DNA of 46,614 bases from a virus (taxonomy: Duplodnaviria; Heunggongvirae; Uroviricota; Caudoviricetes). Shown here one piece after another: positions 21,001-27,000 of the stretch. Numbering within the stretch: position 1 is the stretch's first letter; each line of letters starts with the position of its first letter. The position numbers are program-made. Location of the stretch: IMG/VR virus record IMGVR_UViG_2713896798_000017; one strand, 5' to 3'.

Positions 21001-24000
21001 CTCTCCGTGTTTAACGCGCAGTGCCATGGTGGCAGTGCTGCAGATGTGCCGTGGATTTGTGGTGACACGACGTATTACTGGAAAAATACATACGCTACCC
21101 AGTACGACACCGTGTACGGCGGGTATAAAAACAGGGAGAGTGAGGGCGTTTATTTTGTGCCCTTCATGACAGACGGTAACGGCGTCAATACCGCCACTAA
21201 CGCGCCGGCAGAAGATCCGGATATTCCGGCATCAGGATATTACGGTGCGGCATCGAGAACGAATGGAAACCAGGTATCATCAAACCGCCCGACACATTTC
21301 AGTTCATGGGCGCGCAGGAGCATTATTCCGGATCGTCTGGCAACCGCTATTCTGAACGCAGCCGGGCGCACCTCAGCCTTCATCAGTGGTAAGGCACCGG
21401 AAATCAAACCCTCGCCCGGCGGCAACACGCCATCGGGTCCGTCTGCAGATACGTCCGTTCGCACAATCTCCCTGCTGCCGGCAGCCGGAGAGGCTGCTGC
21501 GCAGGGCTGGAGCATTAAGGATGGCGGAATTCAGTTGTCAGATGGTGTATTTAAGATCACCAAGCAGAGCAATAAAACCTGGTCCCTGACGCATCCGGTG
21601 GATGACGCAATTACCCTGCTGACACAGGGCGGCAGACTGACCTGTAAGTTCCGCCTGTCAGGCGCACTGACCAACAATCAGTTCGGGCTGGGGATTTATC
21701 TGTATACGGATGCTCCCGTTCCTGATGGTGTGGCGATGACGGGTACCGGTAATCCGTTCCTGATGTCGTACTTCACTCAGACCACTGACGGCAGAGTGAA
21801 TCTGATGCATCACAGGAAAGCCGGAAACACGAAGCTGGGGGAGTTCGGCGATTACGGTAACGACTGGCAGACGCTGGAGCTGGTGTTCACCGCCGGCAGT
21901 GCCACGGTTACTCCGAAACTGAATGGAGTGGCTGGCCCGGCATTCCAGGTTATAAAAGACAGTCTGACACTGGGACTGAATGCGCTGACGCTGACGGATG
22001 TTACAAAAAATGCAGCGTATGGCGTTGAGATAGAAAGTCTGGTGCTGGAGATAAATGCACCGGCAGCATAATAAAAAAAGAGCCAGCGACTGACCTGAAA
22101 GAAGACGCTGGCTAAAAGGCCTTATATGTTTGTAGAGACTTATTTTTCACAGACAGCAATGATGCCTGTCAATATATTATCAATATGCGGATTGTTTCAG
22201 TTACAGATGCTTTATTAAGGAAAAAAACAGCCAGCACTGACTTTCGGTGGAGAGGTGCTGGCTCAGAAGGATAGTTGGATTTCACATGATACTTATGCCT
22301 GGCGGTATATTTTCTGACAGACAGTGACGGGTGTTGTCAAGATATTGTGTCATTTATAACCTGAATCAGGGGGTGGCCGGAATGTTATCTGGCATTTTTA
22401 GCAGAGCCTGAATGCCATAATCACGGCTCCCGGAGTTGGCCGTCAGTGGGTGACACTGGCGGCTTTTTTGTTTTTCTTTACTTTCATTTTCTGTCGGCGG
22501 TGACGGAGACATACATCAGATGGAAAAAATCACAACAGGTGTGTCATACACCACGTCAGCGGTGGGGACGGGATACTGGTTACTGCAGCTGCTGGACAAA
22601 GTCTCTCCGTCCCAGTGGGTGGCAATAGGTGTGCTGGGAAGTCTGCTGTTTGGCCTGCTGACGTATCTGACTAACCTGTATTTCAAAATCAGAGAGGACC
22701 GTCGTAAGGTGGCGCGGGGAGAGTAGTCGATGAATAAACAATACGAACTGGTTGTAAAATGAATATTTCTAACTGAAAAAACGTTCCATGAGGTAAGAAA
22801 AGGTCACAGGCAATCAATAACAGGACGTGATGAAAGACCCTTGCATTTGTGCGCTTTCTCTTTAGATAGCAGCAGATACTGAAAATCTGAGTTGTCGGGG
22901 AGTCAGGGATACAGCTGTGCAAGAGTTGGTCATTGTGATTCCATTGAAATCCTGTATGCCATGAAGGGCAGGATTTTATGGCTACCTGAGCTTTGGTGAT
23001 AGTAAGTTGAAAATTCGCATTTTTTGCTGACATGCGTAACGAGAATCCCATAAGCAGGGAGGACTTAATTCTTCATTAACCCATGCGTTGATATTATGTT
23101 TCAGCCGTTGAAGCATCAGCGGTGTTAATGTTGTGGTAATAATATCCAGCGTTTTATGTGAGATCTTACCGTAAGGGTCTGCAAGAATGCTGCTTGTTGC
23201 TTCGTTATTATCTGCCATCAGAAGAAGTAACTCTGATTTAACGTTTTCTGTCATTAGTTGTAAAAATCTTCTGCGCAAACTTTCTTTACTGTTCATTTAT
23301 ATGGCTTCATTTGTTGTAATCTGCTGCGTCTCAAGGGATATGTTTATGAGAGCGACCATGAGTGTTGGATTATATACCTAACATATCAAGGGATTAGAAA
23401 TCGATAAATCCCCATGAACGAAAAAATAAAATACGGCCTGTCGGCTGCCGTTCTGGCGCTGATTGGTGCAGGTGCTTCTGCGCCTGAAATCCTCGACCAG
23501 TTTCTGGATGAAAAGGAAGGTAACCACACCACGGCATACCGTGATGGTGCGGGGATCTGGACCATCTGCCGTGGTGCCATTCTGGTGGATGGTAAGCCTG
23601 TTATTCCTGGCATGAAGCTGTCAAAGGAAAAATGCGACCGGGTTAATGCCATCGAACGTGACAAGGCGCTGGCATGGGTGGAGAAAAACATCAAAGTGCC
23701 GCTGACCGAACCCCAGAAAGCGGGGATCGCGTCATTCTGTCCGTATAACATTGGCCCCGGTAAGTGTTTCCCGTCGACGTTTTATAAACGAATTAATGCA
23801 GGTGATCGAAAAGGTGCCTGCGAAGCGATTCGCTGGTGGATTAAGGACGGTGGCAGAGACTGCCGTATCCGTTCAAATAATTGCTACGGTCAGGTCTCAC
23901 GGCGTGACCAGGAGAGCGCGCTGGCGTGCTGGGACATCGACAGATAGCAGAATATTTTCCTGAAAAATGACGTTGGCCAACGCGGGTGGATAACACGAAA

Positions 24001-27000
24001 TCCTGAAAACTGGTAAAACCTAAGTGAATAAAAGTAAAAACCCCGTTTGTTGGCAGCAAGCGGGGTTTTGTGTTTTCTGACCTTGAGTAAGGCAAGGGAG
24101 AAATTATGGGTAGGGAGGTACTTTCCCTGTGAGGAAGTATAAAAGATTCTTTCTGAGGTTGTCCATTATGAAAGGCATTGAAGTGGAGACGCCAGCCAGT
24201 CTGGATTTAACAAGAGCGGCAGCTTTTGCCATTCGTATTGTGGCCATTGCTGTTCTGGTCTGGGCAATCCGTTGGTGGTGATATGAACCGTGTTCTGTGC
24301 GTGGTTATCATTGTCCTGCTGGTGGCCTGTGGTGCGCTTAGTCTGGGGCTGAATCATTACCGTGATCACGCCATCATCTACAAAGAGCAGCGCGATAAAA
24401 AAGCCAGTGAGCTGGAGCTGGCGAACGCGACAATTACTGATATGCAGATACGCCAGCGTGATGTCGCTGCACTTGATGCCAGATACTCGAGGGAATTAGC
24501 CGATGCGAGAGCTGAAAATGAAACTCTGCGTGCTGATGTTGCCGCTGGTCGTAAGCGCCTGCGGATCAACGCCACCTGCTCCGGTACCGTGCGTGAAGCC
24601 ACCGGCACCTCCGGCGTGGATAATGCAACCGGCCCCCGACTGGCAGACACCGCTGAACGGGATTATTTCATCCTCAGAGAACGGCTGATGGCAATGCAGA
24701 AGCAACTGGAAGGAGCACAGGAATATATCCGTACCCAGTGTATACCGTGATGTTTTGTTATGAAGGTGTTACTGGTAACGTTAAGGTAATTTAACAAAGA
24801 GTCAGTTCCGGACTTTATAGTGTGCTCAGTTCATGGCCAAAAACGATTTCTGTGATAAATATTTTGAATATTATTTACAGGTAAATGGAGTGGGGCACAT
24901 GGATAGAAATATTACAATAGAGAATGAAGTATATGCCCGTATTGTATGGGCAGAGAAGGCAAAAACACGGTAATTCCGTGTGTTGCCATGATACCTGATT
25001 GGCAGAATAGTTGTTTGGTTTTGAGTATATAGTCAGCGTTTTTTGTTCAGTAATTGCTCCCTCAAAAAATAATAAAATAAGGTGATTATTTTTGTTTATT
25101 ATTTAGTTTTTTTTGTGTGTTGTTTTATTGTTTTTGCGTGGTTTGTTTTTTATTGTTATTTCATTAAGGGAAGGTAAATTCAGGATGGCAGTCTGTAGAT
25201 AATCGGAGGTCACTTATGCTACATGATCACGTGGCAGAATGTCTGGAGAAAAAAGGACTGTACCGGAGAGCAGCTGAACGATGGGCAAAAGTGATGGTAC
25301 AGCTAAGTGATGACCAGAAAAGAAAAGTGGCGGCACAGAAACGAGCAGAGTGTTTGCGTAAGGCGCGCCGGACTCCGGTTTCACCGGTGAACCTGACCGA
25401 AATAAAACAAGCGGTCAACAGACTACATTCTGAGTTGGGAATGGGATTTGAAGAGCGGCGGGTATTCCGACGATATAAAGGGACAGGAGAACAGAATACG
25501 TCCGGAAACGCGCGGTCAAAAAAATGCTAAAAAATATCTGAGAGCGTTATTGCCTGTTACCATAAGAAAAAGCGACTTTAGTGGTCGCTTTTTGTGTCAT
25601 ATATAAGTCGTTTAAGTAAACCTGTCTGAACAGGTGCTCTGGTCGTGTTTGTCTTTGTTGGGTACAAATTGAGAATATTTTTCATTAATTAATCTTCTTC
25701 TGCAGGCTTCAATAACCCACGCTGAAAAATTACCTGAACCTTTCAGGTCAAGAGCGATGTTAATTTGTTCAATTATCTGGTTTGGAAATCGGATGTTGCG
25801 GGTTGTTGTTCTGCGGGTTCTGTTCTTTGATGACATAATGTTGCCCCGTATTCAGTGTTGCTGATTTGTATTATCTGAAGTTGCTTTTACGCTAATTTGA
25901 TGCAGATCAATTAATACGATACCTGCGTAATAATTGATTATTTCTCGTGGTTTGATGGCGTACACACATGTCGTGATAAACCTCATGTAGATGATAATTA
26001 TTATCATTTTCGTGGGTCCTTTCCGGCGATCCGACAGGTTACGGGGCGGCGACCTCGCGGGTTTTCGCTATTTATGAAAATTTTCCGGGATCCATGTCCG
26101 GTTTCTCTTCAAGTTAACTATATGAAAAATATAAAAACAGGTCTTCTGTGAACCGGACATGAACAAAAAACAGACATGTAAACCGGACATGACCGGTTTT
26201 GTTGTGATTGTGAGGTGAGAGTTTTTGCGAGGTGAGGAGTGGCTACGCAGACTGAAGTTGCCAGGCATTTAAGTCTGACCGATCGCCAGCTTCGCAGATT
26301 GCAGAAATTGCCGGGTGCCCCGATATCGAATAAGCGAGGGCAACTGGATCTGGATGCCTGGCGCGATTTTTACATATCGTATCTGAGGAGAAGTAAAAAC
26401 GATGTGCCTGATGGCGATAGCGAAGACGACTATGAGGAGAAATTGCTTATTGCCAGATGGGAACTGACAGCAGAACAGGCTGTTACACAGCAGTTAAAAA
26501 ATGAGGTGTCAAAAGGAAAACTTATTGACACCGGGTTCTGTATTTTTGCCCTCAGTAAGCTGGCAATGGCGTTATCCAGTACGCTTGATTCCATCCCTTT
26601 ATCCATGCAGCGACAGTTTCCTGATTTAACACCGCGCCATCTTGACCATCTGAAAACCCTTATTGCTAAGGGGGCAAATCAGTGTGCGCGGGCAGGGGAT
26701 AAATTACCGGATTTACTCGATGAATATATCAGAGCAACAACTGAATAATATGATGGCTGCCGTTTCGGTTGCGCTGCAGCCTCTGGTCAGGGTTGTACCA
26801 ATGACGGCAGTTGAATGGGCTGATCAAAATTATTATCTGCCTAAAGAATCTTCATATGGTGAGGGAGAATGGAAAACGCTGCCATTCCAGATCGCCATTA
26901 TGAACTGTATGGGTAACGACCAGGTTCGCACGGTTAACCTGATTAAATCTGCCCGTGTTGGCTATACAAAGATGTTGCTGGGGGTGGTCGGGTATTTTAT

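Follow-up and report, generated by a model that had tools for sequence, protein, structure and literature searches.

The 46,614-nt stretch of Caudoviricetes DNA analysed here (IMG/VR record IMGVR_UViG_2713896798_000017; hereafter the window) is a lambdoid prophage, and the 335-nt gap between its endolysin gene R and its i-spanin gene Rz contains a small gene whose predicted product, of 37 to 50 amino acids (aa), is a single-helix membrane peptide. This gene belongs to a widespread set of micro-protein genes, some of them unannotated, which are located in front of Rz in thousands of E. coli prophages, Shiga toxin (Stx) phages among them. In descriptions of Stx and related prophages of E. coli, the lysis cassette usually consists of S, R, Rz, Rz1 (e.g. 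PMC8136144). The gap between R and Rz regularly holds, behind a terminator-type hairpin, one to four conserved genes for single-helix peptides, and several of these genes have gone unannotated, including that of phage 933W.

In the window R ends at 23947, and the original prediction, made from the sequence alone, had placed between it and Rz an open reading frame (ORF) at 24168–24281 whose stop codon lies 1 nt ahead of the Rz start. The translation is exactly as quoted there, and a single T (24282) indeed separates the TGA codon (24279–24281) from the Rz ATG (24283). The length of such an ORF carries no significance by itself, since ATG ORFs spanning 37 codons or more turn up in 25% of mononucleotide shuffles of the 335 nt; in 0.8% of the shuffles such an ORF stops no further than 4 nt from the 3′ end. 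The evidence for coding comes from copies in other prophage backgrounds (loci L114, L118 and L121), retrieved via exact-sequence look-ups of variant proteins. These differ from the window ORF by 17.5–19.2 synonymous and 5.5–8.5 non-synonymous changes, i.e. by proportions of synonymous differences (pS) of 0.65–0.71, near saturation, and of non-synonymous differences (pN) of 0.065–0.10. The ratio of non-synonymous to synonymous rates (dN/dS) in the frame of the ORF is 0.03–0.07 for these three loci and 0.03–0.10 over all relatives compared; when the same nucleotides are read in the other two frames it is 0.94–7.6 and 0.9–7.5, respectively. At this near-saturating synonymous divergence 29–33 of the 37 residues are kept, and replacements within the helix are conservative (I/V/L, A/V/T). 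On this comparative evidence we regard it as highly probable that the ORF is a real, translated membrane-peptide gene.

The ORF itself was thus correctly recognized, but its start should probably be moved. ATG 24168, the start proposed originally, is also that of the Prokaryotic Genome Annotation Pipeline (PGAP) model WP_000675931.1 (24168..24281, + strand, 37 aa), annotated as ‘hypothetical protein’ by PGAP/RefSeq and likewise in phage GER2. The in-frame GTG at 24129 is the more likely start, giving a preferred gene model of 24129..24281 (+) and a 50-aa product, (M)RKYKRFFLRLSIMKGIEVETPASLDLTRAAAFAIRIVAIAVLVWAIRWW. The Shine-Dalgarno (SD) sequence of this GTG, AGGGAGGT (24112–24119), pairs with the 3′ end of 16S ribosomal RNA at −13.2 kcal/mol, the strongest pairing of the cassette (ATG 24168, −9.4; S, −6.6; R, −1.5 kcal/mol). 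Only the 50-aa form matches the profile of the protein family phrog_4493 from end to end, and a paralogue found in relatives, A′ (see below), has an ATG at the equivalent position followed by the same residues (MEKYKRILLRLTMKNG compared with (M)RKYKRFFLRLSIMKG). A basic N-terminal segment of the form xYKRxxLRLxM is kept in more distant homologues detected by profile search, and within the N-terminal extension every difference past codon 2 is synonymous. The internal methionine is also conserved in most homologues, as is a GAGG located 9 nt 5′ of ATG 24168 in the window, and ATG 24168 may accordingly be a second, internal start, with two products made from one gene.

Immediately upstream, positions 24094..24132 (+) comprise a leader SD, AAGGGAG (24094–24100; pairing −8.4 kcal/mol), and an 8-codon mini-ORF encoding MGREVLSL, which runs from ATG 24106 to TGA 24130–24132 and whose stop overlaps GTG 24129 as GTGA. 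In relatives the leader AAGGCAAGGGAGAA is found directly 5′ of the start codon, ATG or GTG, of genes belonging to families A′ and B; L114 and L121 do not keep the mini-ORF. This SD and mini-ORF are probably the relic of a neighbouring module's start.

The peptide was modelled by AlphaFold2 as one continuous helix, with a predicted local distance difference test score above 90 for residues 31–50 and of 63–70 for the N-terminal part. Its best hydrophobic segment, residues 31–47 (AAFAIRIVAIAVLVWAI), has a mean Kyte-Doolittle value of 2.5 and a summed Hessa-scale value of −0.66; the result for this segment is marginal and similar to that for the holin's own segment. The membrane nature that had been suggested for the ORF is thus upheld by prediction. 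The N-terminal flank carries a net charge of +4 and only RWW follows the helix, so that the positive-inside rule predicts a tail-anchored long form with its N-terminus in and its C-terminus out.

Family membership was established by hidden Markov model: the 50-aa form matches phrog_4493 with E 1.4e-24 over positions 1–54 of the 56-position profile, and the 37-aa form with E 5.5e-16. When 1.84 billion representative proteins were searched with a profile, 25 clusters were returned, all of 20–77 aa; common to them are a basic stretch at the N-terminus, then an acidic linker, a hydrophobic helix and, at the end, (R/K)WW. The peptide has no Pfam match at E ≤ 1 and no NCBIfam match. As a small membrane protein with a predicted helix, encoded in a lysis cassette, it has the size and place of a holin or antiholin; no holin family was matched in Pfam (E ≤ 1), and every matching PHROG is of ‘unknown function’. 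A spanin identity was considered and rejected, the peptide having no periplasmic domain, lipobox or Cys and matching neither PF03245 nor PF06085. Our literature search on small ORFs between R and Rz, on small membrane proteins of lysis cassettes and on the LT-II prophage found no description of these genes.

How general this arrangement is can be judged from 80 viral contigs fetched because they encode an Rz at least 91% identical to that of the window. Of 81 Rz-bearing loci examined, 77 had an identifiable R upstream. R abuts Rz in none of the 77; the gaps measure 297–1426 nt, every one has one or more small ORFs before Rz, and in 72 loci the small ORF ends 1 nt before the Rz ATG. The slot is filled by three unrelated families of single-helix small ORFs, singly or in arrays of up to four, sometimes located behind inserted cargo such as an Ant/KilA-type gene. 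Family A, to which the window gene belongs, and its paralogue A′ match phrog_4493, phrog_1115 and phrog_3246, family B (VFDFSKLIREIRMMAEKLSTWKFILIWLVFVIMASGYFIGQIRWW) matches phrog_6632, and family C (MSDKLITPAKVLCVIVGISFSLMLVALFLSLAWVMLSSSGLLG) matches phrog_4906; all five PHROGs are labelled ‘unknown function’, and membership adds no mechanism. The ORF next to Rz is of family A in 52 loci and of family B in 20, both ending 1 nt before the ATG, and in 7 loci it is family C or its remnant, with a 7-nt spacer. Purifying selection is evident in the other families as well, with dN/dS of 0.19 for family B and of 0.35–0.39 for family C.

A tblastn search located family C in 276 phage records, in most of which it is unannotated. 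In phage 933W (NC_000924.1, 27420–27569; locus L124, 3421–3570) it is represented by an unannotated single-helix ORF of 44–49 aa, ..MISDKLITLVKSLCVLVGISFLVMLVAIFFSTAWRVLTLSGLVG, which is situated between ant and Rz, overlapping the stop codon of ant and ending 7 nt before Rz. The same search with family A retrieved 2 phage records and was hampered by the low-complexity filter. Among 5426 complete E. coli genomes, 2051 match part of a 431-nt query taken from this stretch and 668 match most of it. Beyond E. coli, records were recovered from Citrobacter, Yersinia and Salmonella only; matches from a DNA-pattern scan of genomes were mostly due to chance, and those in Citrobacter braakii and Escherichia sp. 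were accepted on the basis of host and aligned sequence. A scan of a genome collection with protein alignment gave 0 candidates confirmed by tblastn, for which the shortness and low complexity of the query are probably to blame. The family has a narrow range, but where it occurs it is very abundant. The description of the layout as non-standard holds with respect to lambda and to the Qin prophage of E. coli K-12, where rrrQ overlaps rzpQ with no small ORF between them, but not with respect to E. coli Stx-like prophages, where a filled slot is usual.

The genes that accompany the peptide vary. Variants of family A occur with Phage_holin_8 or Phage_holin_3_7 and a Peptidase_M15_4 or GH108 endolysin, whereas the window has an S21 pinholin and a signal-anchor-release (SAR) lysozyme, so there is no specific tie to the pinholin/SAR system. 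Co-evolution with the transmembrane segment of Rz was likewise rejected: in L121, Rz is only 44% identical to that of the window and has a different N-terminal transmembrane segment, yet the peptide is identical at 33 of 37 positions (89%). In four other loci (L114–L117) the ORF and its ..TGGTGGTGATATG junction are followed by a gene for a 60-aa lipoprotein (phrog_7528) in place of Rz, and no gene of the Rz family PF03245 was called in these 5.1-kb loci. This lipoprotein (predicted; L114, 2616–2798) has a lipobox LVGC and no Pfam match, and the prophage type in which it occurs is very common in E. coli. Since the ORF precedes a non-Rz lipoprotein and is found with varied holins and endolysins, its link to the spanins is positional and not obligatory. 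In L118–L120, LT-II-type enterotoxin A and B genes (PF01375 and PF06453, at about 787–1924) lie between the GH108 endolysin gene and the small ORF. In the same loci the gene 3′ of the small ORF is truncated and the small ORF is intact.

The boundary between R and the small gene is marked by an element of the intrinsic-terminator type at 24037..24079 (+), within which falls the terminator initially proposed at 24041–24076. It consists of a 15-bp hairpin, 24037–24069 (AAAACCCCGTTTGTTGGCAGCAAGCGGGGTTTT), followed by GTGTTTTCTG. The hairpin folds at −21.4 kcal/mol on the + strand (z = −4.4; 0 of 200 shuffles fold as well) and at −14.2 kcal/mol on the − strand (z = −3.5), where it is followed by UUUUUACUUUUAUU; the greater stability on the + strand is due to two G-U pairs. 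By sequence and folding this is a G+C-rich hairpin with a U-run (UUUUGUGUUUU), and with an A-run immediately upstream of the hairpin it looks bidirectional. A G+C hairpin with a U-run lies about 95–130 nt 5′ of the first small ORF in every module examined. Equivalent hairpins with compensatory stem changes were found in five divergent modules: G-C is replaced by A-U, and two positions read U-G, G-C, A-U or U-A. In the module alignment 84% of cells are paired, compared with 43–60% after sliding the 3′ partners by one to three columns. Loci of the 933W type bear a different hairpin at the same place. The hairpin of L118–L120 is without the + strand U-run, and in L118 and L119 only the minus-strand U-run is kept.

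In lambdoid phages, late transcription is carried out by Q-modified RNA polymerase, which reads through intrinsic terminators. The hairpin thus cannot part R from Rz in late transcription, and would most plausibly block unmodified polymerase arriving from either direction at a module boundary. Between the stop codon of R and the hairpin there is a conserved non-coding stretch (23948..24036, +), whose folding is unexceptional (z = −1.5). The alignment of window positions 23900–24103 shows 87–89% identity to more than 150 Stx-phage records, regardless of what lies downstream, and the first ~85 nt after R are common even to the 933W-type loci that bear the different hairpin. An Rfam search of positions 22000–26500 at E ≤ 1 gave only a sub-threshold rimP-leader match, which is the hairpin itself, and a search of the whole window at gathering threshold gave nothing in the R-Rz interval. 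Identity of the hairpin element with a known prophage small RNA (sRNA) was rejected on position, as PasA/PasC lie between the esterase and holin genes and AgvB/AsxR at the pR′ moron site.

At its other end the small gene merges with the translation signals of Rz. Its final codons, TGG TGG TGA, together with the following T, contain the SD sequence of Rz (GGTGGTGAT, within 24274..24282, +; −11.5 kcal/mol for pairing with 16S ribosomal RNA at its 3′ end). An identical ..TGGTGGTGAnATG junction is found after genes of families A and B and after one unrelated ORF, and the double role of the W-W-stop end as the ribosome-binding site of Rz is probably why unrelated upstream ORFs share it. Translational coupling to the spanins, as suggested originally, is plausible, but with an SD this strong Rz may initiate independently.

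The reading we favour, with about even confidence, is that the gene specifies a late-expressed accessory membrane peptide of the lysis cassette. In the proposed mechanism the gene would be transcribed within the Q-dependent late operon, since it is oriented like S, R and Rz, a consensus scan of the + strand from the hairpin to the ORF found no promoter-like site, and there is no terminator before Rz. The hairpin after R would stop only unmodified polymerase, in either direction, and so act as a boundary between modules. Translation would start mainly at GTG 24129 and possibly at ATG 24168 too, and ribosomes terminating in the Rz ribosome-binding site could pass straight on to Rz. The product would be a tail-anchored, single-pass inner-membrane peptide of about 50 residues, with a basic cytoplasmic N-terminus, a helix at about residues 30–47 and a three-residue periplasmic tail, RWW. 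Selection appears to act on the peptide sequence itself, whatever holin, endolysin or Rz variant adjoins. As the peptide is kept regardless of its neighbours, it most likely acts as an accessory lysis modulator in the host inner membrane, either by self-assembly or through a conserved host protein. Co-expression with Rz late in infection we consider fairly likely; that the peptide modulates the timing or efficiency of lysis is a guess, and rather less likely than not.

Several observations weigh against this reading. Lambda and K-12 Qin are without such a gene, so it cannot be a core lysis function. Frameshifted copies occur in two loci (L024 and L027) and in some protein clusters, so that occasional pseudogene copies exist; in these two loci, with an R-Rz gap of 331 nt, a 4-nt deletion in codons 8–10 of the family A ORF parts the N-terminus from the frame of the helix. 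In L118 and L119 GAG takes the place of GTG 24129 in an otherwise intact ORF, so the long form is not universal. The hydrophobic segment is not only marginal by the Hessa-scale value given above but also contains Arg. Conservation independent of phage partners would fit a role outside lysis equally well, and every functional statement on the peptide is inferred from sequence.

Among known systems the closest analogues appear to be LysA of phage P2 by position and dual-start antiholins by design. P2 LysA is a membrane protein encoded between the endolysin gene K and the spanin genes lysB/lysC and is reported to affect lysis timing; it has about 140 aa and several transmembrane segments and is not essential for lysis. 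Like LysA, the window peptide would be a non-essential, accessory membrane protein encoded in the endolysin-spanin slot, the order in the window being R, small ORF, Rz/Rz1. With 37–50 aa, one helix and no Pfam match at E ≤ 1, however, the window peptide is unlikely to be homologous to LysA. The dual-start holin/antiholin pairs, S105/S107 of lambda and S68/S71 of phage 21, differ by a positively charged N-terminal extension. In the window an SD precedes both GTG 24129 and ATG 24168, and initiation at the GTG would add 13 residues (RKYKRFFLRLSI), five of them basic. Unlike those pairs, the window peptide has no holin-family homology and a single, marginally hydrophobic helix, and the prophage has its own S21-type holin.

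A more ambitious version of this comparison, that the family forms a new class of dual-start, micro-holin/antiholin-like lysis regulators, seems to us a long shot. Its basic N-terminus would lock the 50-aa form N-in, while the 37-aa form, with an acidic N-terminus, might insert inverted or be the active species; together they would tune membrane depolarisation and thereby the firing of whichever holin is present. In lysogens the gene might be kept silent by an antisense RNA that terminates at the bidirectional hairpin. The arrays, with as many as four genes (A, A′, B, C), would represent a so far unrecognised ‘timing module’ that is exchangeable and attached to Rz in Stx phages and other lambdoid phages of E. 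coli.

The foremost alternative to an accessory lysis peptide is a ‘moron’, i.e. an accessory gene expressed in the lysogen to the benefit of the host or as a block to superinfecting phages; its position among the lysis genes would be incidental. Small membrane exclusion proteins are a known class, e.g. gp15 of HK97. The R-Rz slot is a hotspot for cargo, with ant/KilA-type and LT-II enterotoxin genes, and the peptide is conserved whatever the neighbouring lysis proteins are; moreover, the ORF remains intact in L118–L120 despite the truncated next gene, and the gene is very common in E. coli chromosomes. The + strand between hairpin and ORF nevertheless offers no promoter-like site, a transcript of the gene would include Rz and Rz1 for want of a terminator after the ORF, and none of families A, A′, B and C has a match in PADLOC, which covers anti-phage defence. 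On balance we consider a moron unlikely.

Less probable again is a type I toxin-like function. A membrane-depolarising peptide would have its translation held down by a cis-antisense RNA, starting from a minus-strand site at 24165..24136 and ending at the hairpin, until massive late transcription overwhelmed the antisense RNA and the toxin helped to trigger lysis. The peptide is hydrophobic and shorter than 60 aa, as small toxins are. The site in question (24136..24165, −; TGGACA, 18-nt spacer, TATACT) agrees with the promoter consensus at 10 of 12 positions and is aimed at a hairpin followed by a U-run on that strand, the only U-run kept in L118 and L119. The antisense stretch of about 105 nt would cover the leader SD and the mini-ORF and folds with z = −3.3. 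The hexamers of the site are unchanged in L114 and L121, and pS in their segment is 0.28–0.41, compared with 0.65–0.71 in the rest of the ORF. The upstream mini-ORF overlaps the start of the gene as mok overlaps hok. A precedent comes from Stx phage Sp5, whose type I system hokW-sokW is reported to facilitate phage release (PMC8621323). However, the promoter-like site is speculative: it lies inside coding sequence, where hexamers are constrained anyway, and promoter-like sites in the region are not above chance (3 found, 4.5 expected). The consensus scan found no promoter for the toxin itself between the hairpin and the ORF, and there is no Rfam match to sok or another antitoxin at the locus although sok is detected elsewhere in the window. 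The two G-U pairs favour the hairpin on the + strand. Finally, unlike Hok/Sok and hokW-sokW, the window gene lies in the late operon before Rz and is often part of an array; toxin-antitoxin loci do not typically hold as many as four different small transmembrane ORFs in one operon.

The possibility that the ORF serves as a translational adaptor only, a functionless peptide left after foreign DNA had parted R from Rz and retained to deliver ribosomes, would account for the 1-nt junction in 72 of 77 loci and for the W-W-stop codons that form the Rz SD and are common to unrelated upstream ORFs. It is very improbable, as dN/dS across the whole ORF reveals selection on the amino-acid sequence, the three unrelated families are all single transmembrane helices, the same ORF precedes a non-Rz gene, and Rz has a strong SD of its own. 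That the ORF is a chance open frame in a non-coding spacer, in keeping with its frequency in shuffled sequences and the absence of a Pfam or NCBIfam family, is scarcely credible in view of the purifying selection specific to this frame, the existence of a conserved family, and start and SD features that are conserved as well.

The remainder of the cassette has the following organization. The S21-type class II holin (pinholin) gene S (PF04971) is found at 22520–22726, the gene of the SAR-type phage lysozyme R (PF00959, E 3e-24; ‘lysozyme’ in PGAP) at 23414..23947 (+), Rz (PF03245, E 8e-49) at 24283..24750 (+) and, embedded within it, the o-spanin gene Rz1 (PF06085, E 2e-21) at 24503..24688 (+). 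S and R are non-adjacent too, being parted by ~690 nt with a 104-aa ORF on the opposite strand (22982–23296, −; phrog_1853, E 3.5e-47; a 90-aa ‘hypothetical protein’ in PGAP). The gap (22072–22520) between the sialate esterase gene (20221–22071) and the holin gene features at least one strong terminator-like hairpin (22438–22464, plus a T-run) and, by eye, two further inverted repeats at about 22080–22115 and 22225–22265; Rfam gave no match in this gap. The sRNAs PasA/PasC have been placed in the esterase-holin position (2026 preprint).

Downstream of Rz, genes for a PerC-family transcriptional regulator (25216–25530, +) and for YlcI/YnfO (DUF3950; 25612–25836, −) take their names from the PGAP annotation of an identical locus; lambda carries bor in this position. 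Just 5′ of the PerC-family gene, at 25060–25165, there is a long T/G-rich tract of low complexity, e.g. ttttttgtttattatttagttttttttgtgtgttgttttattgtttttgcgtggtttgttttttattg. Elsewhere in the prophage, Rfam matches at gathering threshold comprise DicF, sok antitoxin RNA, three transfer RNAs and STnc100 (4435–4486, −; 13246–13420, +; 19482–19728, +; 19808–19998, +), and the sok match implies a hok-type toxin gene nearby.

The strong purifying selection on the window peptide, together with its independence from the lysis proteins encoded next to it, suggests that it probably has a defined target in the host membrane. If peptides of this set do affect lysis timing, release of phage and of Shiga toxin would be affected as well. 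If they do not, they would represent an abundant uncharacterised class of prophage membrane micro-proteins.

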